Virus record (IMG/VR): IMGVR_UViG_3300007734_000758
DNA: 64,000 nt
Origin: a virus
Reading direction: 5' to 3' (one strand)
Under the pieces are notes generated by a model. The model made no database searches and was not told where the DNA came from. It saw only the letters and a program-made list of their open reading frames with translations. This document shows positions 2,014 to 33,119 of this stretch, one piece after another; position 1 is the first letter of the stretch; every line of letters begins with the position of its first letter. A program made the translations under genes and the position numbers.

Positions 2014-3075
2014 TTATTCTCTTGGCATAGCGGATAAATACCCAAAACTAGTACGTAGCCAAGTGTCAATATCTTTTATTACAGTAAACATCTTATCCAT
2101 CATGAACATACGTTTAAACTGAGCAATATTGTATTCGTTGGTGGGACGTGCTGCAAAATCTAACAACATTAGTTTTGCGTTGCCGTTAATATCCGGTTCT
2201 TTCAATTGCATCAAAGCATAATTCAAATGTATCTTAGATTCATTAGTAACAATACTCTGAAACACTTTCTTCTCCTGATCCTTAGAGTTTTCAACTAAAA
2301 AATCAACAGAGAGTTCTGCATCAGCACTTAGTTGCGGGAATGCTTTTAAAAGTGTTTTAGCACCGATGCCAGGCACGCCTGATATATTATCACCGGTATC
2401 CCCAATCACTGCACGGTAGAGTAGAAAATTCTTTGCATTAACACCGTATTCTTGCAATACCAATTCCGGAGTATACAGTTTCTTTTTAATGGGACTCCAT
2501 ACATTAACTCGCTCGTTACATAATTGAAGATAGTCCCTATCAGATGAAACAATCACTACCCTCTCGGATTCTGTGAATACTTGGGTAGTTAAATATGCAA
2601 TAGAATCGTCTGCTTCTATGTTGTCAATAGCAATAGTACTAATCGGCAAACAATCTAGATACTCGATAAGCCTTTGGAATTGCATACGCATAGATGCCTG
2701 TTCATCCTGGATGTCTTCGAACTCTTCATACCGATTGAATTTAGTACGAACGGCACGGTTCTCTTTATATTCCGAATACATCTTCTTACGTTTAGCAGAA
2801 CCTCCCTTTCCATCAAATGCTATTATGCATCTGGTAGGTTTGAATGTTCTTACTAATAGTGCCAAGGACCGTAAGAATCCTGTCACGCCGCCAATGTGCA
2901 TACCATCATCATTTAGTGACGGTACGGCTGAAAATACTCGTATATACAGGTTGAGCTAGAGACCGTCGATAATCAGTACCCGATCATTTCTTTTCGTGGT
3001 AGCTGCATCGACGGTCTTATCTTTTTGCTCTGTTTGAAAATCCTGATAACGATGTAATAAATCGTTCCTGTTCAT
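2014..3075 (-). CDS. 5'-3' exonuclease / flap endonuclease (PolI N-terminal domain / T4 RNase H-like); true start at 3075, in-frame TAG at 2958-2956
   Basis: ATG at 3075 overlaps the upstream TAA (TAATG) and is in frame with the annotated ORF: MNRNDLL...RVLIIDGL*LNLYIRVFSAVPSLNDDGMHIGG; downstream motifs IAFDG, YKENR, EADD, SSDRD, GDTGDNISGVPGIG intact. Confidence 0.85.
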
Positions 3076-3917
3076 TATGCTTCTTCGTTAATTACATCCG
3101 AATCTACTGTCACTTCATCAATTCCACCATCAATACCGGGACGGTATTTGAAGATATAAGCATTGCAGATATCTCGGTACATTGCTGCCTGGACTTCAGG
3201 TCGTTCTTGTAACAGCGTATGGAATGATTTGCTTTGGAATTTTATCTCCTCACCGGTTTCTTGGTCTATATAAGTATACCAGGCACCAGCGTTCGTAATC
3301 AAACCATAATCTTTCATGAGTTCCATCCATCCTCCGTAATTATCAATTCCGGATTCAAAATAGATATCATAACCAACCATCCTCAACGGAGGTCCGATTC
3401 GATTCTTAACTACCTGCGCATTTGTTTTTATACCAATAATCTGTTCAACACCGGCGCCATTTTTAACTTTAATTTGGCCGATGGATTTTAAACGTAACCT
3501 AACAGATGCGTGGAAGGGAATTGCTTTCCCGCCGCTAGTAGTATTATGATTCAATCTGCCATTTGCCAGATATGTATGATCATTACTATCTACTTCAATA
3601 TCAACTACGTGCATTGGCTCATCAATCACTTTAAAATCCGGGTGCTCGCATGCAAAGATTTCTTTTCCATTTTCTACAAATCGGTGATTACCAGAAACTT
3701 TTATGTGTCCGTCGGTATAAAATGAATTGACACTAGGTTTGACTATAAAACTTTTAATTGGAACGAAGACTCGATTTCCTGTACTCGAATCTATGGATTC
3801 TACTTCCAATTCGAGATCCGATAAATCATACATCTCTTCTTCAGAGAAATTGTTTAATTGTAAAAAACGATCGGCAAGCTCAGCCAATGTAATTTCTTCT
3901 TCTATGTATTTGCTCAT
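3075..3917 (-). CDS. uvsX: Split-intein C-fragment (125 aa) fused to the RecA/UvsX C-extein
   Basis: Intein blocks VSGNHRF, VVDIEV..HTYLANG, NHN/T followed by RecA TTSGGKAIPFHASVRLRL...VVKNRIGPP...AGAWY. Confidence 0.9.
   Translation of the reverse strand: MSKYIEEEITLAELADRFLQLNNFSEEEMYDLSDLELEVESIDSSTGNRVFVPIKSFIVKPSVNSFYTDGHIKVSGNHRFVENGKEIFACEHPDFKVIDEPMHVVDIEVDSNDHTYLANGRLNHNTTSGGKAIPFHASVRLRLKSIGQIKVKNGAGVEQIIGIKTNAQVVKNRIGPPLRMVGYDIYFESGIDNYGGWMELMKDYGLITNAGAWYTYIDQETGEEIKFQSKSFHTLLQERPEVQAAMYRDICNAYIFKYRPGIDGGIDEVTVDSDVINEEA
3543..3917 (-). mobile_element. IntC of atypically split intein
   Basis: Ends His-Asn before Thr+1; acidic N-terminus MSKYIEEEITLAEL. Confidence 0.88.
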
Positions 3918-4963
3918 ATATGTTCTTTTATTATTTGTTTACATTTTTCAACATCAGTTAAAATATCATTTTCCCACAGCACTATCACAGTATAAGAATT
4001 TTCTTTTAAAGATACAATTTTTTCTTCATCATATTTCCATATATCAGCAGCTATTCTAGATTTATGTGTGGTATCTGTTGGTTTGAAATACTTAGGATTT
4101 GCATGCCAAAAATCCCCAAAACACTCAACTATAATATTACCCTGAACTAAGAAATCAGGTACATATGATTTATCGTTTAAATGTATTGTGGTTTCGTATT
4201 GCCACTCTAAGGACAAATCATTTAAAATCAAGGCTATTTGATATTCAATCGAATTCATATCATAACCGTTAATTTTAAAATTTTTTTGCTTGTGCGAAAG
4301 AAGCATCCTATAAAATTTATCAGGATCGTTTTTCCTAGCATCATGCCACATATTTTTAGCTGCCCGCGATATTTTTTGTATCCTGTCGGGAGCGTTGCAC
4401 GCTGCAACAAATCGTTTCTTATATTCAGGATCAAGCATACGTTCCCTATTCTTCTCGGATATCCGCTCGTAATGTCCCGAATCCTTACGAGTTTGTATTT
4501 GTTTATCTCGCCACGCAGGATCCGTTTTCCACCGTTCAGAATTTTTCTTACCGATGATAGTCGCCCATTTTTTTTGTTTTAATTGTAACTTATTTCTAGT
4601 AATATCACCTGCAGGTGATTCATAATGCTTTTGTAATGAAGCACTAACTCGTCTTCCTATCATATTTTTTTCTTGAAGCAACATTTTCGAATCATCCGGC
4701 TTAAATGTATCTACATACCACTGTATTAAGTTAGTCTTAGCACAAAGTTTTTTTCTTTCATGAAAAACCTCATTTCCTAGAACATCGCCCAAATAATGAA
4801 TATAGTATTCTTGCTGTACGCCACTATAAGGAATTCCGTTCGGTCGGATCGGGTGTGATTTATTCTCTTTAAATTGCTCTTTTAATTTTAATTTGATTTT
4901 TGGATTTGTAGGTTCATTGTTATAGGTTACATCAAAAAAATCCAGTATTAAGTCAGTATTCAT
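3914..4963 (-). CDS. Vsr/DUF559-like PD-(D/E)XK homing endonuclease inside fractured recA
   Basis: C-terminal SIE...YVPDFLV..IIVECFGDFWH...LWENDI; basic helical N-terminal region; lies between the two intein halves. Confidence 0.82.
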   Translation of the reverse strand: MNTDLILDFFDVTYNNEPTNPKIKLKLKEQFKENKSHPIRPNGIPYSGVQQEYYIHYLGDVLGNEVFHERKKLCAKTNLIQWYVDTFKPDDSKMLLQEKNMIGRRVSASLQKHYESPAGDITRNKLQLKQKKWATIIGKKNSERWKTDPAWRDKQIQTRKDSGHYERISEKNRERMLDPEYKKRFVAACNAPDRIQKISRAAKNMWHDARKNDPDKFYRMLLSHKQKNFKINGYDMNSIEYQIALILNDLSLEWQYETTIHLNDKSYVPDFLVQGNIIVECFGDFWHANPKYFKPTDTTHKSRIAADIWKYDEEKIVSLKENSYTVIVLWENDILTDVEKCKQIIKEHI

Positions 4964-5020
4964 AAGTCCCTCTGTTGTTGTTTATATGTTTTATACTTAT
5001 AAATATTAACAGAGGGACTT
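4964..5020 (-). promoter_or_regulatory. 13-bp hairpin sequestering the endonuclease initiation region, with the ATATTTATA motif in its loop
   Basis: AAGTCCCTCTGTT (4964-4976) / AACAGAGGGACTT (5008-5020) perfect inverted repeat; motif at 4998-5006; the 3' arm abuts the ATG. Confidence 0.8.
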
Positions 5021-5030
5021 TTTATGAATA

Positions 5031-5759
5031 TCAACCAATCTTGTATCGTATTTTTACTTTCGTACTAAACGGATCCACACACCAGGGATCTCCGAAACTT
5101 ACTCCTAATCGAGTCCTAAGCTGGTTTGTAAAGATTAAACAGATACGTTCACGGGCAATCATATTAGTAATCTTACGCATTGCCTTAGAAAGGATAATTG
5201 ATTTAGACGTAGCATAACCATCCTTATCATAATCCGCTGCCTGTTCAATCTTGGTAGATGCACCCATAATAGAATCGACTACAATAGTAACCAACCTATC
5301 TTTAGAGGATTTTCGAATTGATTCAACAATATTCTCAATCGCTTGGAAGATGTCCTCAATGGTTTCTAATGGAACATACAACATTGTATTTAGATCCAAA
5401 CCAATCGCTTCCAAAAATTCCCTACTGACAGCACTCTCAGTATCAATATATACTGCTAAGCCACCCTTTTGTTGGGTAGAAACGAGTGCATGTGCTGCAA
5501 GTAAAGATTTTCCCGAAGCCTCGAGCCCAGTAATCTCTGAAATTCGCCCTACCGGAAATCCTCCATTCGGTCGGTTAGCGATTGCTAAATCTAATAACGA
5601 TGAACCGGTTGATACGAATTCATTTACATCTGCAGGAGTATCAGTATCTCCATCTAAGAAGTACGCCACCTTATAATTGGTACTCTTAAACTGCTTGTTA
5701 AGATTCGCTGCTAGTGTGGATGCTAAATCATCCAACACTTCTAATTTTGTTTTGTCCAT
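5031..5759 (-). CDS. uvsX: RecA/UvsX N-extein fused to a 16-aa split-intein N-fragment
   Basis: Walker A GLEASGKS, YIDTE, IVVDS, FTNQLR..LGVSFGDPW, then CVDPFSTKVKIRYKIG-stop. Confidence 0.9.
   Translation of the reverse strand: MDKTKLEVLDDLASTLAANLNKQFKSTNYKVAYFLDGDTDTPADVNEFVSTGSSLLDLAIANRPNGGFPVGRISEITGLEASGKSLLAAHALVSTQQKGGLAVYIDTESAVSREFLEAIGLDLNTMLYVPLETIEDIFQAIENIVESIRKSSKDRLVTIVVDSIMGASTKIEQAADYDKDGYATSKSIILSKAMRKITNMIARERICLIFTNQLRTRLGVSFGDPWCVDPFSTKVKIRYKIG
5034..5081 (-). mobile_element. IntN (16 aa) of atypically split intein
   Basis: Cys1 directly after FGDPW; block-A-like CVxxxTxVxI; basic. Confidence 0.85.
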
Positions 5760-5771
5760 TTGAACTCCCTA

Positions 5772-6530
5772 TTAAGAATTGAATAATGAATCGAATGCGG
5801 CGGATACATCTTTAACACCGGTTGATTTTGCAGGTGCTGCGGTTTCTGATTCCGTATCCTCGTCACCAGCAGTTGCAGTGTTTTCAGGATTCATCCAATT
5901 TTCTAATGCAGTACGCAACTCTTCATAAGTTGGTTCATTAAACAAATCTGTAATCGTAGGTTGTTCTTTAATAAGATTGATTACATCCGGATCTGCAGTG
6001 ATAGGCGTAGTATTCGGTTTAACACGTATCTGTGTTTTAGGATATGCACCAGGTTTTTCTGCTGCAATAAATTCAACAGTAATATCACGTCCCGCTTTCG
6101 GATCTGTGATATCGCCGTAATCCGGATCTACCATGAAACTCAGCAATTCAGAATAAACTGACTTACCGAAGCCCCAAAATTTAACACCTTCATTCTCCTT
6201 ACCACGAACCAGGATCGGTACATATGTACGCATTTTAGGTTCTAACTTTTTACCCATACGCCATTCATCAGAGTTTCCAGATGTCTTTAATTTTTCAGCG
6301 AATTCTACAATTGGGTCAGCCTTACCGAAAGAAGCGGGAGAGAGATAGATCTTCTTTCCGATGTCATAATGAAACAACAATTCAATAAATGGATTTTCTT
6401 TATTGTGCTTGTAAGGTACGATTCGAATCTGATGTGTACCTGGTTCAGGCTTCCAAATATTGGTTTGTTTTGTGGTCTGTTTCTGTAACTGATTAAGTTT
6501 CGATTTGATTAAATCTAAGTTGATTGCCAT
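5772..6530 (-). CDS. Single-stranded DNA-binding protein, T4 gp32-like
   Basis: WKP..G..QIRIVPY, VKFWGFGK, DYGDITDP..GRD, acidic tail ending AFDSLFNS; adjacent to uvsX. Confidence 0.8.
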   Translation of the reverse strand: MAINLDLIKSKLNQLQKQTTKQTNIWKPEPGTHQIRIVPYKHNKENPFIELLFHYDIGKKIYLSPASFGKADPIVEFAEKLKTSGNSDEWRMGKKLEPKMRTYVPILVRGKENEGVKFWGFGKSVYSELLSFMVDPDYGDITDPKAGRDITVEFIAAEKPGAYPKTQIRVKPNTTPITADPDVINLIKEQPTITDLFNEPTYEELRTALENWMNPENTATAGDEDTESETAAPAKSTGVKDVSAAFDSLFNS

Positions 6531-6604: not shown

Positions 6605-6994
6605 CTAAATGTTTCTAACCTCAAAAAAATGCAACTTAATTTGACGTAAATTACCCTCACTGGTCAGCAATAGGCTATTACTATATAAGGCCCAATTGAT
6701 CGGTAATGTTTTATCTAATACTCCGTTATTCATATTCCTAATAATCACATTCAACGCGTTCACAGTATATAAAGTATTAGATTCCTTCTTCCTATGAATA
6801 AGAATAGTATTTTTTCCGTAATCTACCAAATTAGTTCGTAAAATATTATAGGTGCAGTATAAATCATTCGAGTTGGCTGTATTTTCAAATACGAAAATTC
6901 GTTTTTCTGGAAGTTCATATGTTTTACTTACATAATCAATAACCAGATCTAAATCAGACTTTTTAACGAATGTGCATAGCAACTGCGTGTTCAC
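6605..6994 (-). CDS. Hypothetical protein (129 aa)
   Basis: ORF in the replication cluster, GTG start with AGGA upstream; function not recognised. Confidence 0.7.
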   Translation of the reverse strand: MNTQLLCTFVKKSDLDLVIDYVSKTYELPEKRIFVFENTANSNDLYCTYNILRTNLVDYGKNTILIHRKKESNTLYTVNALNVIIRNMNNGVLDKTLPINWALYSNSLLLTSEGNLRQIKLHFFEVRNI

Positions 6995-7033: not shown

Positions 7034-8368
7034 TCACAATTGTAATTCTAACATTGAACCGTAATCTGTTCCTGCTTTGACCTTTACTGGATACTTACTA
7101 CTTAATATATTATAAATACCTACCAATACATTTTTTCCTTCTGCAGGATCAACATCAAATAGGAATGAATCATAAGTATATAGAACAAGTTTGGAATTGT
7201 ACTGCTTTAGGTATTCATTGATTTCGTTTATAACTAGTATACCCGTTTCAAACTCTAATGCCTGCAGGTAGTAGTTGAAAAGTTTATTATTAGTGATGTC
7301 TGAAAAGTTACTTGCATATAGTTTTCTACCGAATACCGGAGTTTCGATATATCCCCTAGTAATGAATGTAGTCCATAAATTACGAGTCAAGTCCTTTACA
7401 CGCTTAAACAATTCTATATCTTGATACTCAGGGTCAGTACCACCAAATACCTGCTTGAATGTTATCTGTTTTGCAACCTCATACTCATCTGCATCAATGG
7501 TATCCTTTTGAAAGTATATCTTCGCAAAGTGTTCGTGAATCGATTCCTCATCGAAACTGTATCCAACACACTGACTAATCAATCGTAAGTGAAACGAATC
7601 AAAATCAAACTCAAACAATTTACCACCATTAAACCTGGATACGAATACTTCGCGTGACCCATCCTCTTTATTCAATGCTGCAAAGTTAACGGTACCAAAA
7701 TTATTACTAGGACGGCCTGTCGTTGTATAGATATTATACAAAGAATGCACTAAGTTTCCACGCAATGGATATTTAGGAAACATTTGCCGGAAACGTTTTT
7801 CATTCACACAAATACCATTAGATTCTAAAATCTTTAGTGAATCCAATACCAACCCATTGTATATATCAGAAACAGAGTCCGTTTCAAAACGTTTCACTTC
7901 CGGGAGGAATAGCTCTAGTAACCGATCACAATATTCGATGTGTTTAGTGATCGGAATAATCTTATTGTCACTCATTACTGACGAGTACCAACGTTCAAGA
8001 TAAGAGGAATAACCCTCTCGAATCTTTTCTATCGGTAGGTGAGAATTATTATTTAGCCAGTAAACTAATTCTATATCATAGGACTCTTTAGGAACCCATA
8101 GGGGCATCCATTTTTTCCGGTATACAAAGATATTATGGCTATGAGAACATGCCCCTATGGCGTTCATATCAATGCTAAGGGCGTCTAAATGATTTACCGG
8201 AAGTACCGCTCTCTCTTCCTTATCAATAAAGTAAACGTACACTAACGAGACCGGATTATTCACATAATGTAAATGCGAAGAACTGAATACTGGTATCCAT
8301 ATGGAGTCCGATTCGGACAGCATATCCTGAAACCATTCTATATCAGTATTACATTCAATGAATCGCAT
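7034..8368 (-). CDS. Divergent, short family A DNA polymerase-like protein
   Basis: TTTGRPSN, motif A DFDSFHLRLI, motif B AKQITFKQVFG, NYYLQA, motif C LYTYDSFLFD. Confidence 0.75.
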   Translation of the reverse strand: MRFIECNTDIEWFQDMLSESDSIWIPVFSSSHLHYVNNPVSLVYVYFIDKEERAVLPVNHLDALSIDMNAIGACSHSHNIFVYRKKWMPLWVPKESYDIELVYWLNNNSHLPIEKIREGYSSYLERWYSSVMSDNKIIPITKHIEYCDRLLELFLPEVKRFETDSVSDIYNGLVLDSLKILESNGICVNEKRFRQMFPKYPLRGNLVHSLYNIYTTTGRPSNNFGTVNFAALNKEDGSREVFVSRFNGGKLFEFDFDSFHLRLISQCVGYSFDEESIHEHFAKIYFQKDTIDADEYEVAKQITFKQVFGGTDPEYQDIELFKRVKDLTRNLWTTFITRGYIETPVFGRKLYASNFSDITNNKLFNYYLQALEFETGILVINEINEYLKQYNSKLVLYTYDSFLFDVDPAEGKNVLVGIYNILSSKYPVKVKAGTDYGSMLELQL

Positions 8369-28074: not shown

Positions 28075-31000
28075 TTAAACATTAAAAGAATCCAATCTAC
28101 TTTCATCTAAAAGTGTCCCCGTATCACTAGGTTCGACATGTTCGTTTAATGTTTGAGCAACGCTCGTTGATTTTGCTAATTTATTTTGTTTCATTGAATG
28201 TAATATAGAACCGATATATTTCGTATTTTCACCGAATGCACTGCTAGTTTTAGGAGTTTTAGACATACCAGTATCAACTTTAAATGTATCTGATACATCT
28301 TTCATTCCGAGCGGATCCGGCCCATCTACATCGCGATCACTCTCAAAATTCGTTTTAGCTTTAGGGCGTCCGGGCCCGGGAACATATTCACGTAATCTAG
28401 GATCTTCATACTTACTTGATACGTGCATTGATGCAATATCATGAGGAGTACCATAGCTCTGTTTAGTCAATTTCGGATCATTTCCTTCACTCTTTATCTG
28501 CTCTAAACGGAATTCTTGCTTGGTATCTTCTACCACTAATTCCTGTTCATTTTGCCAACCGTTTTGATCCATATCAAAAATGTTTTCATAGATAAATTTA
28601 CGGCTGAATAACTTACTTTCAATTAACGTATTTGCCAAATCAATCTTTTCCTTCATTAATTCGACCTTCTGACGCTCATATATGATTGAGGGAGAGGTTA
28701 AATTCAATTCGAAGTTAACTAAATCGGCATCTTCAAATCCCTGTGTATATAAGTGAACAACGGCAATCTTATATAACTCACTAATTACTATTCGTTGGAT
28801 ACGTTCAATGGTCCTAGCAAAACGAACATCTTCAGCGGCCAGAGTACTATTATGTATAATCACGCCAGCATCCGTACCAAAATTATGATATCTATTAATC
28901 GTTAAATCGCAGGTATCTATATTCTCAGACAACCATTCAACATTCAGCACCGTATGATTGGCATAGTGTGACTCGTATTGCCTATAATTTTGCATAAATC
29001 CTTTATTGGATAACGCTAGAGGCATGTGTGCAAAAACAAAATCTTCTTTGTTGATATCATATAATTCGAATACACGATTTAACGTAGCTCTAGTAATTCC
29101 TAATTTAGATTCTAAGTCTTTAAACGAATTCGATACTTTAGCAGTCTCCAATAAAATATCATACGGGACTTTGTTAAATTTGCAGTTATATGTATTTCCT
29201 ATCTTTCTATTTCTTGCTATAGCAGAAATACATCCTCCAGCCGCGCATGTTTTATTGTTAGGTACACCTAACCTACCAACAAGTTTACATCCACATATCT
29301 CACAAGTATAATCATACCTAGGCAACTTATTTACAGGTGCGTGGGTTCTAGCATATTCACCTAACTGCTTGGCAGATTTAGCACCACCCTTCTTACCCCC
29401 GTTACTAGAATTAATTAAAAACTGCGGTGAATTTCTATATTGGACCATAGCAGGTGATTTGTTCCACTCATGTGCATTTTTCTGATGAAATTCTCTATGT
29501 TCGAAAAATGTCATTGATCCATCTAAATTATCTGGATTGTTATTCCTAGAATTATAATCTTTATGGTGTATAACTTTACCGTCTTCTTTAATATTATAGT
29601 GATCAGCAACCAATCTATGTACTAAAGTATACTTCTCGGTGCTTGGATTATATACTGTAGTATAGTGTTTTTTGTATCCACCATTTCCTAAATACAACGG
29701 CATTAGAGCTTGACCAGTATTCAAATCTTGAGCCTCTATCCATTCACCGTTTCTAGTTAAAAACTTATGGTCTGGCGTACATTCGATATATTTCCCGTTA
29801 TCCAAATTAACGCGTACTATCTGAGTATTTAACCTAGTATAACCTGCCCACTCAATTTCGCCGGGCACGATACTATTTGTATCTGTATCTAATGAATATA
29901 CATAATTTTGTTTACCCGCATTAAATTCATCAATTAAATCCGAAACGGTTAATACTCTCCCGTCAATCAACGGAATCATAGTTAGCGGACTGATACATTT
30001 ACCTTGGATGCCCTCATCATACCCTAAGAATGCTTTGGGTATCTTCAGCGCAGCCATCATCTTGTTCCTTAAATATTCTATATCCTCTATCTGACCGTCG
30101 CTTGATAATCCAGGCAACGTTTCAATTGAAGTACCACTTTCCGATCCTCGTACAGGTAAATAGAAATCCTCTAACATGTTTTGCATGTTGAATTTCAAAT
30201 TATACTCCCCGGTTTGCGGATCCATATATGGAACTTTCTTTACCTTAGTAATAATATTCTGGATATGAGAATCTACCTCAATCGGTGGGATATTACCTAC
30301 ATCTATCTTAAATATACGACGTTCCGGCGCACGCATAATACGTTGCAGTAACATCGCATCTTCCATCAGTACTAACTGCTTAAATAATTTACGAGCACCT
30401 TCGATCATTGATTTTCCGTACGGTAAGAAATTCGTATCGGATAGCATTCTAAAGTGTGCTATTTCATAATATTCAAAATGTGTATTCTTTTCATTGGAAC
30501 TATACACAGAGTTTTTACCGATAAATGTGAAACGTACACTGTACGGATTTTCAGGATCGTATCCCTCTTGTCTTTCTAATTCATAGGCTGATATGGGCAT
30601 TACGTTAACAACACCCAATTCTTCATTAATATCTAAATACAGATAAAAATCTCCGTATTTACACATATTACGAACCCACGGCCATAAATTATACTCGACA
30701 TTCAATACATCATAAAATAAGTTATGAAGTATCTTTTGAATACGTGCATCCTCAGTCTTAATCTCTAATACAATATTGTTTTCTGAATATGTAGTAGATT
30801 CATCTGCATAAATATCAAGCGCAGATGAAATGATCGGATCTAAGTCCATTGCTTCATAATCAGTATACAATTGAGTCTTTACCGCATGGAAACTGTAAGC
30901 GTTACCAATACCAGTAACTCCCATAGTACGATTTGTATGCAGACCAGCAAAACGATCTACGTATGTACTTCCATATGGGTTACCTCCCGCTTGGAGTTTA

Positions 31001-31101
31001 CTCGTATCAGTTACTTTAATCTTATTGGCGCCTACCTTCCGTACTATAACTTGAGTACTGAATAAACGCCTTAACCTAGCACGTATTGATGTATCTATCA
31101 T
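28075..31101 (-). CDS. Portal protein (T4 gp20-like) with intein
   Basis: LMEDAML..RI.RAPERRIFKIDVGN, EDFYLP.RG...GT.IETLPG, ALKIP, EDVRFARTIERIQ. Confidence 0.93.
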   Translation of the reverse strand: MIDTSIRARLRRLFSTQVIVRKVGANKIKVTDTSKLQAGGNPYGSTYVDRFAGLHTNRTMGVTGIGNAYSFHAVKTQLYTDYEAMDLDPIISSALDIYADESTTYSENNIVLEIKTEDARIQKILHNLFYDVLNVEYNLWPWVRNMCKYGDFYLYLDINEELGVVNVMPISAYELERQEGYDPENPYSVRFTFIGKNSVYSSNEKNTHFEYYEIAHFRMLSDTNFLPYGKSMIEGARKLFKQLVLMEDAMLLQRIMRAPERRIFKIDVGNIPPIEVDSHIQNIITKVKKVPYMDPQTGEYNLKFNMQNMLEDFYLPVRGSESGTSIETLPGLSSDGQIEDIEYLRNKMMAALKIPKAFLGYDEGIQGKCISPLTMIPLIDGRVLTVSDLIDEFNAGKQNYVYSLDTDTNSIVPGEIEWAGYTRLNTQIVRVNLDNGKYIECTPDHKFLTRNGEWIEAQDLNTGQALMPLYLGNGGYKKHYTTVYNPSTEKYTLVHRLVADHYNIKEDGKVIHHKDYNSRNNNPDNLDGSMTFFEHREFHQKNAHEWNKSPAMVQYRNSPQFLINSSNGGKKGGAKSAKQLGEYARTHAPVNKLPRYDYTCEICGCKLVGRLGVPNNKTCAAGGCISAIARNRKIGNTYNCKFNKVPYDILLETAKVSNSFKDLESKLGITRATLNRVFELYDINKEDFVFAHMPLALSNKGFMQNYRQYESHYANHTVLNVEWLSENIDTCDLTINRYHNFGTDAGVIIHNSTLAAEDVRFARTIERIQRIVISELYKIAVVHLYTQGFEDADLVNFELNLTSPSIIYERQKVELMKEKIDLANTLIESKLFSRKFIYENIFDMDQNGWQNEQELVVEDTKQEFRLEQIKSEGNDPKLTKQSYGTPHDIASMHVSSKYEDPRLREYVPGPGRPKAKTNFESDRDVDGPDPLGMKDVSDTFKVDTGMSKTPKTSSAFGENTKYIGSILHSMKQNKLAKSTSVAQTLNEHVEPSDTGTLLDESRLDSFNV
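28849..29997 (-). mobile_element. 383-aa intein with HNH homing endonuclease in portal
   Basis: GK/CISPLT...CTPDHKF...HNFGTDAGVIIHN/S; internal VHRLVA...IHHKDYNSRNNNPDNL. Confidence 0.92.
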
Positions 31102-31121: not shown

Positions 31122-33119
31122 TTACAATAACCATTTTAATGATTCAGAAGAACCATCTGGTAGTTTACTTGTCCAGGGAGAATTACTTGGATCATTGACT
31201 GTATATATACCGGAATGCTTTCCTATATGTGTTACAGCCTTTAATGTTAGATCTAAACCCTGTTGTTTCAATTTTAATGCAGTATCACGTATCCACAATG
31301 CAATACATAATGACATAATTAAGTCATCATTATAGCCATGCTGCGCTTCTGCTCGGTTACCAATCCAAATAAATACTAGCAATTCATCAATTAACCGTTT
31401 ACTATGTATGATTGGTGCCTTTTCACGGAAATAGGTTTCTAATTTCGCAATCATTAGTGGTCTGGTCTTGGATGAGGTAGTGAAGCCAGGAACCATTGCA
31501 CTCTTATCTTTAAGATCATATCCTTTAGACAAATGAATATTCTCATCCAAATAACCATCCTGTCGGTAGCTGTAATAAAGATTTGGGTATCCTTTATCTA
31601 TTGCTACCTGTATAACTGCCCAACCAATATTAGCATTTTCAATCGCCAATATTGCATTGTTATATTCCGTAGCCATTGATACTAACATGTGACCGTATTC
31701 AGTCGTTCCTATCTTTCCTCTAAATTCAGCTACCTGTCGTAAACTCTTTAATTCAATAATATGGAATGCTGAATAGTCCCCGCCATCACCGCGGGCAACG
31801 TCGGCCGCTACTATATAATCTTTTGTATAATCCGGGTACTCCCATAGCCACAATTCACCACCCATTCCACGTTTTTCTATAGGTTCCTGTGTATAGGTTT
31901 CTCGATACCATTCTATCAATTCACCTGCAACTACGGTGTGTCCGGATGAAATGAAGTCGGTGTCGCAGTTGTGACTTAATAACCCGTTAGTAAAATATAC
32001 ATTGCCATTAGCAACATCAACCAAATCAAATAAGTCGATCGGTTCCGTTATTGTTTCAATTTCCAATATGCACAACTTACCATGCGTTGATTCAATTGCA
32101 TCTCCTACATGTAAAGTATCTGCATATACCTCAGAACCTTCGATAATAAATCTATGATTTTTGGAGCATTCTAAGTCTATTCCGCCTTCAAGTAAAATAC
32201 GCAACCTGTCGGATTTCTGTACTCGGCGGATGCCGGTAAAAAATTGATAACCGTTTGGAGTTAAAACACTATATTTGGTATTTTTATTCTCTTCTGCAAG
32301 TCGTTCATATAATTCGTTTATAGTAATTTCTTCCTCGTCACCAGTTATATTATTTACTATATTCACCAAACTATTGCCGGAAACACACTCCTGTGCCGCC
32401 AATCTTTCACCTAATAATTCAGTTTGAAGCTGACGCCAACTCTCATCCCTTTCCGGATGCAGTGACCAATGTAAACGTATTGGATGGAACTGTCCGCCGG
32501 ATTCGGCATCTACCCATGTCCTATGGAAGAAGTTACCAGTACCGTTCGGTGTACTCAGTACAATTGCACCACCACCCGTCGCTAATGTTTGTTGTGCTGC
32601 TGCCCATATCTCATCAATCTTTGTGATAAAGGCAGCCTCATCGATTATAAGAAGTGAGAGTGCTTCAGAACGACCCGAATGACCTGCACTAGAAACGGCC
32701 TTTATTTGTGAGCCGTTCTTAAACTTAAGCGATAATTTGTTATCTTCAATAGTAATACCACGTAACCAGGTAGGTAGGTTTTCGTGCATTACTCTCACTT
32801 TAGTTACTAAGTTTTTTGCTACCTCTTGTGTAGTGGCGATTACTAATACGTTGAAATCATTCTTGAATAACATGCACCAAAGTGAATATCCAGCAACTAG
32901 GGTAGAGATACCCATTTGCCTTGATTTCAGAATGACATTGTAACGATTATCTGCTAATTCTTGTAGTGTGTTCTCTTGGAAGTTATATAACTGGAAGAAT
33001 ACCTTTCCTTTGGTAGGGTGTTGGATAATACAATACTTTTTCATGAAATATACCGGATTAACGGCACACTTCATGTATTCTTCAGCAATAATTTGTTTTA
33101 GCGATTTGTTCTCAGCCAT
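31122..33119 (-). CDS. terL: Terminase large subunit (T4 gp17-like) with mini-intein
   Basis: KSRQMGIST, LLIIDEAAF, LSTPNG, DVARGDGGDYS, NDDLIMS. Confidence 0.93.
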   Translation of the reverse strand: MAENKSLKQIIAEEYMKCAVNPVYFMKKYCIIQHPTKGKVFFQLYNFQENTLQELADNRYNVILKSRQMGISTLVAGYSLWCMLFKNDFNVLVIATTQEVAKNLVTKVRVMHENLPTWLRGITIEDNKLSLKFKNGSQIKAVSSAGHSGRSEALSLLIIDEAAFITKIDEIWAAAQQTLATGGGAIVLSTPNGTGNFFHRTWVDAESGGQFHPIRLHWSLHPERDESWRQLQTELLGERLAAQECVSGNSLVNIVNNITGDEEEITINELYERLAEENKNTKYSVLTPNGYQFFTGIRRVQKSDRLRILLEGGIDLECSKNHRFIIEGSEVYADTLHVGDAIESTHGKLCILEIETITEPIDLFDLVDVANGNVYFTNGLLSHNCDTDFISSGHTVVAGELIEWYRETYTQEPIEKRGMGGELWLWEYPDYTKDYIVAADVARGDGGDYSAFHIIELKSLRQVAEFRGKIGTTEYGHMLVSMATEYNNAILAIENANIGWAVIQVAIDKGYPNLYYSYRQDGYLDENIHLSKGYDLKDKSAMVPGFTTSSKTRPLMIAKLETYFREKAPIIHSKRLIDELLVFIWIGNRAEAQHGYNDDLIMSLCIALWIRDTALKLKQQGLDLTLKAVTHIGKHSGIYTVNDPSNSPWTSKLPDGSSESLKWLL
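31968..32387 (-). mobile_element. 140-aa mini-intein in terminase
   Basis: AQE/CVSGNS...CSKNHRF...LFDLVDV...YFTNGLLSHN/C; no endonuclease domain. Confidence 0.92.

Follow-up and report, generated by a model that had tools for sequence, protein, structure and literature searches.

How does a phage whose only recA gene is cut into two reading frames, with a 1.1-kb insert between them, make a RecA protein? The locus that raises this question lies in a 64,000-nucleotide stretch (the window) of IMG/VR virus record IMGVR_UViG_3300007734_000758. That record is 157,151 bp long, has direct terminal repeats and is rated complete, and its source is an uncultured freshwater or estuarine phage of 157 kb. 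An initial annotation had proposed that the halves of RecA are rejoined as proteins by an intein that is itself split, with the N-terminal piece (IntN) encoded at the end of the first half and the C-terminal piece (IntC) at the start of the second. We conclude that this is very probably correct: the locus is a fractured recA whose halves are joined post-translationally by a naturally split intein, broken at the published S1 site, with a Vsr-like gene between them. Association of the pieces, splicing chemistry, homing and regulation are what we infer from the features below, all of which are on the minus strand.

5759..5031, minus strand: recA-N open reading frame (ORF), 242 residues; RecA-N (226 residues) ending ...LGVSFGDPW, then CVDPFSTKVKIRYKIG, then TGA
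5082..5759, minus strand: N-terminal extein of RecA, 226 residues, with Walker A GLEASGKS and Walker B IVVDS; Pfam RecA (E 1.2e-32), PHROG 97 UvsX-like recombinase
5034..5081, minus strand: IntN, 16 residues, CVDPFSTKVKIRYKIG; block A with Cys1 and one beta-strand; TGA stop at 5031-5033
4957..5030, minus strand: RNA hairpin in the 67-nt spacer, a predicted fold with a minimum free energy (MFE) of -28.8 kcal/mol
4963..3914, minus strand: putative Vsr-like homing endonuclease, free-standing, 349 residues; PHROG 22677 and PHROG 945 'endonuclease'
3917..3075, minus strand: IntC plus recA-C ORF, 280 residues; residues 1-125 end ...NGRLNHN, then TTSGGKAIPFHASVRL
3543..3917, minus strand: IntC, 125 residues; acidic first strand and helix (IEEEITLAELADRF), blocks B, F and G
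3078..3542, minus strand: C-terminal extein of RecA, 155 residues, starting at Thr+1 (TTSGGKAIPFHASVRL...); Pfam RecA and PDB RecA alignments; stop at 3075-3077
3543..5081, minus strand: the whole mobile cassette (IntN, spacer, endonuclease gene and IntC), 1,539 bp or 513 codons; absent from a near-isogenic contig

Every sequence and position that the initial annotation had quoted was found in the window on this strand, accurate to the residue. Residues 42-225 of the first ORF match positions 27-199 of the Pfam RecA profile and residues 123-192 of the third match positions 198-262, and because the two matches follow one another along the profile, the ORFs are collinear halves of one RecA, as had been claimed. 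The protein had been labeled RecA/UvsX; its PDB matches are of the RecA type (E ∼1e-16, versus 1e-5 for UvsX, 3io5), so the first half of that label stands and a T4 UvsX-type protein is not what the gene encodes. The genome carries one copy of recA, the fractured one, and the cassette interrupts the codons for the L2 DNA-binding loop of RecA, after W226 and before T.

The exact empty allele is the strongest evidence for where the intein begins and ends. A metagenome contig (JGI, Ga0129336_10009347; here L126) aligns with 7012-5082 of the window at 99.6% and then directly with 3542-1 at 97.0%. What it lacks is exactly 3543-5081, a segment whose first base opens the Cys1 codon and whose last base closes the Asn125 codon, and it encodes an uninterrupted RecA of 381 residues. 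Close to the junction, the two sequences are nearly the same, with no differences in the 324 nt upstream and one in the 443 nt downstream. A cluster of RecA proteins of the same length (P0163, 381 residues) is 99.5% identical to the predicted spliced product. Among the intein-less matches to the N-terminal side, the junction could be read in 66 of 67, and all of these are uninterrupted (...FGDPW-TT[SA]GGKA..), 65 of them reading ...GVSFGDPW. The joined exteins have uninterrupted counterparts in L126, P0163 and the other intein-less clusters, and the junction FGDPW-TTSGG that had been predicted is the exact reading of the homologues that carry no intein.

Between them, IntN and IntC hold all of the class 1 intein blocks, as the initial annotation had stated, and they are encoded by separate ORFs, with a stop codon after IntN and an ATG of its own for IntC. 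The class 1 nucleophile, Cys1, is C227 of the recA-N ORF; block B reads S75-G-N-H78, which we count as T-x-x-H (the family consensus being T-x-N-H); block F contributes D106; and block G ends ...NGRLNHN, placing H124 and N125 directly before Thr+1. The residues that matter for splicing do not vary. Across 34 N-side relatives, with a mean column identity of 66%, there is no change at C227, V228, P230, T233 or Y239; across 26 relatives on the C side, with a mean column identity of 40%, there is none at H78, D106, H124, N125 or T126. The charge asymmetry that had been noted is present, with a net +3 on IntN and -15 on IntC, -12 of which lies within the first 45 residues of IntC. The comparison with a contiguous intein in the terminase gene of the same genome also held: IntC aligns to residues 18-140 of that 140-residue mini-intein, and therefore lacks only its first 17 residues, which IntN supplies.

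The break had been placed after block A, and a contiguous orthologue located it more closely. This orthologue (L002, IMG/VR 3300005551_000075) reads ...FGDPW/CVDPLSTKIKIRYKV-IEEEITLEAF...RLHHN/TTSGG, with slashes at the extein junctions, and joins IntN straight to IntC (...KIRYKV-IEEEITL...); three further relatives, P0082, P0097 and P0023, are also contiguous. In an AlphaFold2 model of the L002 intein (predicted local distance difference test, pLDDT, 92.6; predicted template-modeling score, pTM, 0.86), the break falls in the turn of a hairpin, between strand 13-18 (KIKIRY) and strand 21-26 (IEEEIT) and ahead of helix 27-35. The S1 split position, at which VidaL and PolB16 are broken, is described as "immediately following beta-strand 2" (PMC13014065), and on the orthologue model the recA intein is split at this published S1 site. 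The top Foldseek matches of the model in the PDB are all inteins, with E values down to 1.6e-5 and template-modeling scores of 0.6-0.7, and include Aes123 PolB1, Pho RadA, TFIIB mini-inteins, VidaL (6vgv), NrdJ-1, PolB16 (8cpo) and Mtu RecA. The HINT fold was recognized on this contiguous model, the window's own pieces being modeled as a predicted complex only. We also considered a second split site (S2) for three relatives with an IntN of 28-36 residues (L085, L087 and L124) and rejected it; in all three the strand and helix remain at the head of IntC, and because that start is unchanged the extra IntN residues are tails.

Prediction of the complex, which had been suggested as a check, supports binding of the two intein pieces. 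IntC residues 1-135 together with RecA-N residues 205-242 scored 0.73, versus 0.37 for the best control; among reference cases, 58 of 80 solved complexes attained this mark, as did 2 of 110 mismatched pairs. At least 80% of contacts are shared between runs, with a partner pLDDT of 55-56, and the predicted interface brings IntN 224-242 against IntC 2-12, 35-40, 72-79 (block B), 102-107 and 123-126 (the C-terminal junction).

These results are consistent with the following mechanism. A class 1 mini-intein in the L2-loop codons would have had its own coding sequence broken, at the turn of its first beta-hairpin, by a Vsr-like homing endonuclease gene, such that three proteins are now made from one strand: RecA-N with the 16-residue IntN, the endonuclease, and the 125-residue IntC with RecA-C. 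The basic strand of IntN (TKVKIRY) and the acidic strand with which IntC begins (IEEEITL) would form an antiparallel pair, completing the HINT horseshoe. Cys1 would then form the thioester, aided by S-G-N-H78 of block B; Thr+1 would attack to give the branched ester; Asn125 would cyclize, aided by His124 and Asp106; and an O-to-N shift would leave a native W-T bond in a RecA of 381 residues. During co-infection, the endonuclease presumably cuts intein-less recA alleles, by which the cassette would spread, and a hairpin that buries the ribosome-binding site probably limits expression of the endonuclease.

Several observations weigh against this account. Position -3 of block B is Ser in the window copy versus Thr in the consensus; a Pfam Intein_splicing search did not detect the split recA pieces and matched only the portal and terminase inteins of this phage; the endonuclease assignment is based on weak matches (E 0.0015-0.004); IntC starts without a clear Shine-Dalgarno sequence, which bears on the stoichiometry of the RecA halves; and the score of the predicted complex may stem from likeness to, or memory of, solved inteins.

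We were concerned, above all, that the gene might simply be broken for good, the recA or its intein having been inactivated by invasion of the endonuclease and the pieces now lying idle or assembling non-covalently. There is a precedent in the nrdA of an Aeromonas phage, a gene split by an endonuclease which is reported to work in fragments without splicing (PMC3045599); IntC has no obvious ribosome-binding site, and splicing in the recA intein lineage is itself predicted from sequence. We nevertheless consider this outcome unlikely, given that residues needed only for splicing are invariant across relatives sharing ∼40-66% identity, that the split state has been kept in more than 100 clusters, that the fractured recA is the only one in the genome, and that a 141-residue insertion left in the L2 DNA-binding loop is unlikely to be tolerated.

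Joining of the halves at the RNA level, with the 1.1-kb insert acting as a group I intron or other RNA element that carries an endonuclease ORF, as in Bacillus recA, is less probable still, and we give it very little weight. Vsr-like ORFs do occur in recA group I introns (PMC2677866, excerpted text), and in one relative, L087, recA is interrupted by a true group I intron (RF00028, 70.9 bits) five codons downstream of the intein site. In the window, however, an Rfam scan of 2900-5900 at E≤1 returned four snoRNA and miRNA matches at chance level, far below their gathering scores, and beyond the RecA homology the ORFs continue for 16 and 125 codons, which contain blocks A, B, F and G of an intein. 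The empty allele lacks exactly the intein codons and not an intron-shaped piece, and no joints were present, at thin coverage, in read-derived contigs from one DNA run, two probably-DNA runs and one metatranscriptome. The same four runs gave no contig of the empty allele, and the metatranscriptome gave a single contig of 188 nt, which lies within recA-N. That the layout is an artefact or chimera of the assembled contig is the least credible explanation of all: the genome is a metagenome-assembled virus record, but a 1,599-nt contig from an independent freshwater run is identical over 3513-5111, a span that begins in the last part of IntN, takes in all of the endonuclease gene and reaches into IntC. 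The layout is therefore not a product of assembly. In addition, near-identical DNA occurs in runs from ∼9 further studies (freshwater, estuary, river and seawater), and the same three-gene layout recurs in 25 other IMG/VR contigs.

Returning to the fractured recA with a split intein, the initial annotation had described the gene in the gap as a Vsr-like endonuclease, and its PHROG matches agree, with weak matches to Vsr itself. The putative catalytic core lies at about residues 235-335 (PDF...ECFGDFWHANP...WEND), and the N-terminal 230 residues have no assigned function. Against TIGR00632 (Vsr) the protein scores E 0.0015, below the family cut-off, and a profile of four endonuclease orthologues matches the Vsr structures 1cw0, 1vsr and 1odg at E 0.004. 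The core motifs of Vsr (the Asp of PDF, the His of FWH, and W-E-x-D) are present and invariant in the four orthologues, with weak statistical support for the match as a whole.

The spacer hairpin upstream of this gene is far more stable than expected by chance (z = -7.66), as none of 200 shuffled sequences folds as well. Its core stem is 12-13 bp, with the 5' arm at ∼5019-5008 and the 3' arm at ∼4976-4965, and its loop holds TATAA-like motifs. The GAGGGA Shine-Dalgarno sequence of the endonuclease is buried in the 3' arm. Hairpins of different sequence bury the Shine-Dalgarno at the same place in two relatives (L003 and L004), and one covers the ATG in a third (L001). At its other end, the endonuclease gene has a stop codon that overlaps the ATG of IntC (ATGA), and translation of IntC-RecA-C may be coupled to the endonuclease gene via this overlap. 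The strength of the Shine-Dalgarno sequences at the IntC, endonuclease and recA-N starts, compared across loci, did not discriminate for or against coupling; the comparison is uninformative because many recA-N starts also lack one.

The initial annotation had called such split inteins a rare class. In metagenomes, this one is not rare: a search with IntC found at least 119 clusters at 90% identity, ∼113 of which are genuinely split, because they start M..(Y)IEEEITLAE, and 51 of the best 118 N-side matches end in an IntN. In these 51, IntN is 15-31 residues long (15-20 in all but one), with a mode of 15 (22 of 51) and the consensus CVDPFTTK[VI]KIRYK. None of the cultured phages in INPHARED encodes the IntC part. 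A degenerate pattern for the IntN-coding sequence matched 42 IMG/VR contigs, which divide as follows.

25 of 42 contigs: split, the gap occupied by an orthologous Vsr-like gene
2 of 42 contigs: cut at the contig edge, with a Vsr-like gene after IntN
4 of 42 contigs: split without a Vsr-like gene (five were tallied, with L118 misclassified)
3 of 42 contigs: other or decayed inserts, L110 and L123 keeping a 60-residue remnant
4 of 42 contigs: contiguous intein
3 of 42 contigs: contig ends before IntC

The remnant in L110 and L123 is the N-terminal 60 residues of the endonuclease. L124 and L125 have a gap of 68-109 nt without an endonuclease and a 28-residue IntN, and L084 has a gap of 540 nt with an unrelated ORF of 143 residues, together with a Vsr-like ORF of 133 residues downstream of recA-C. 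These five show later stages of the intein cycle. A pair of relatives differs in whether the intein is split at all: contiguous P0082 keeps Met-Asn-Tyr exactly at the point where split P0083 starts, and identity between them is 82% across the aligned region, with the intein portion still more alike. Either the pieces were re-fused as the endonuclease gene was lost, or that gene was inserted just upstream of a Met that was already there. The contiguous orthologues as a group (L002, P0082, P0097 and P0023) share the insertion point and blocks of the window intein, with 41-55% identity in IntC, and differ in being single polypeptides with no endonuclease gene.

The L2-loop codons are a hot spot for inteins and introns. 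P0023 (427 residues) has two inteins seven residues apart in the L2 region (...VISHN/TSFGDPY/CVDPY...), the second of which is the contiguous form of the recA L2-loop intein. At L087 (IMG/VR 3300007513_000220), the group I intron mentioned above occupies 660-982, right after recA TTPGG, and the same locus also carries the split intein; L085 and L106 look alike in this respect, each with an insert (a Vsr-like ORF or something else) behind TT(S/P)GG, but gave no Rfam match. A separate site is used in L003 (IMG/VR 3300009537_000182), where recA at 1649-2872 is in three pieces and a second atypically split intein sits in the Walker A P-loop. Its IntN is 13 residues (...EA/CVTEDTIIDVIIE stop), its IntC follows ∼100 nt later and ends NHN/SGKS, and it has no endonuclease gene. 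Clusters P0132, P0134, P0181, P0199 and P0169 are listed with L003 as relatives with a three-piece recA or a P-loop intein; in P0169 the P-loop intein is contiguous, and its IntC is weakly similar to VidaL (E 0.041).

We compared the locus with the systems already described, and neither a fractured gene nor an IntN of 15-16 residues is new. The natural short-IntN inteins in print are VidaL, PolB16, AceL TerL and GOS TerL (PMC13014065), about five such inteins having been studied (PMC11923092), and the 16-residue IntN has characterized counterparts in VidaL (16 residues) and PolB16 OarG (15 residues) (PMC13014065 and PMC10189870). VidaL (PDB 6VGV/6VGW; Neugebauer 2017 and Burton 2020, as cited in PMC13014065) resembles the recA intein in being naturally split and Cys-dependent, with a 16-residue IntN ending in Gly, an S1 break, the HINT fold, and an IntC that begins M-x-EE... 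before its strand and helix. It differs in having Ser rather than Thr at +1, in an identity of 14% over the Foldseek alignment, and in exteins (ESG/SGK) that look like a P-loop site, whereas the recA intein is in the L2 loop; VidaL has also been characterized experimentally, whereas the recA intein is known here from sequence and models. When the contiguous orthologue was compared by phmmer with the sequences in the PDB (E≤10), no intein was returned, and thus no sequence link to the VidaL lineage. PolB16 OarG (PDB 8CPN/8CPO; PMC10189870) is likewise a natural S1-split intein of metagenomic origin, with an IntN of 15 residues, the mode of the recA family; it differs in its Ser1/Ser+1 pair, its lack of cysteine, its NX histidine motif, its 168-residue IntC and its PolB polymerase host, and its identity to the recA intein model in a structural alignment is 14%. 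AceL TerL and GOS TerL are natural short-IntN inteins from phage-like metagenomic DNA (PMC13014065), and they differ in the S2 split after helix alpha1, in a longer IntN (25 residues in AceL, more in GOS) and in their terminase host. Compared with these, the fractured recA intein is a separate lineage, of the same kind as VidaL and PolB16 and broken at the same site, but without detectable sequence similarity to either.

The arrangement of the genes is that of the fractured genes reported by Dassa 2009 (PMC2677866, here and below in excerpted text), in which host-N plus IntN, a free-standing endonuclease, and IntC plus host-C lie on one strand. Half of the endonucleases in that study are Vsr-like, variants without an endonuclease gene exist, and hairpins lie upstream of the endonuclease ORFs, which the spacer hairpin at the recA locus matches. 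The hosts named there are gp41, IMPDH, DnaE, NrdA, NrdJ, ligase and terminase, with recA appearing only with group I introns; Gp41-1, Gp41-8 and NrdJ-1, which were characterized from that study, are canonically split (PMC13014065). The Vsr-like homing endonucleases of recA group I introns (PMC2677866) would share with the window endonuclease a Vsr-type core and recA as their target, and they differ in being housed in an intron rather than a split intein. Their characterized representative is I-Bth0305I (PMC3239194); in a search of the PDB, the window endonuclease profile did not match its structure, and Vsr alone was matched (E 0.004). In open-access full text searched for a split intein with UvsX, or an atypically split one with RecA, the arrangement was not found. 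The 2017 paper that introduced VidaL reportedly also names a 'VidaL UvsX' intein, which may belong to the recA lineage; the lineage may therefore have been described before. Our tentative proposal is that the recA L2-loop inteins form an undescribed, sequence-distinct and very abundant S1-split lineage (IntN of 15-16 residues, Cys1/Thr+1) that is seen in every stage of its cycle, namely contiguous, invaded by a Vsr-like gene, with a decaying endonuclease, split without an endonuclease, and as a near-isogenic empty allele.

Around the locus, the minus-strand gene order is SSB, recA-N, endonuclease, recA-C, a small ORF, a FEN-type exonuclease and a DnaB-like helicase, a module for replication and recombination. 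Two ORFs adjoin the SSB gene (444 residues, 7034-8368, and 129 residues, 6605-6994, both on the minus strand) and have no PHROG match at E≤1e-5. In the helicase gene (618-1976), a 750-nt patch at 793-1542 contains 81 of the 106 downstream differences from L126, and elsewhere downstream of the junction there are at most five differences per 250 nt; this patch is a mosaic, recombined segment and holds most of the 3% downstream divergence.

The window also encodes two other inteins. The terminase mini-intein (140 residues, contiguous, 31968-32387, minus strand) is inside the large-subunit ORF at 31122-33119, runs from Cys1 to SHN before Cys+1, is 25% identical to the recA IntC, and has a weak Pfam Intein_splicing match (14.7 bits). 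The portal intein (383 residues, 28849-29997, minus strand) is inside the ORF at 28075-31101, runs from Cys1 to IIHN before Ser+1, and carries an HNH endonuclease domain (Pfam Intein_splicing 62.3 bits; PHROG HNH at residues 473-549). With one each in recA, terminase and portal, this phage therefore holds three inteins, and no two of them share an architecture.

The known picture of fractured genes is unchanged by these data. What the recA family adds is a clean record, preserved in natural populations, of how a homing endonuclease fractures an intein together with the gene that hosts it, in which a near-isogenic empty allele stands beside contiguous, split and endonuclease-less relatives. Split inteins with a short IntN are wanted for protein semisynthesis and live-cell labeling, because the N-terminal piece can be made by peptide synthesis, and this family, with N pieces of 15-16 residues, a Cys1/Thr+1 pair and no sequence similarity to the characterized ones, could plausibly supply orthogonal tools. 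Should its members splice well, more than 100 natural variants of one such tool would be at hand. If our tentative proposal is right, the recA L2-loop inteins would also serve, at the level of populations, as a model for the splitting of inteins and possibly for their re-fusion.

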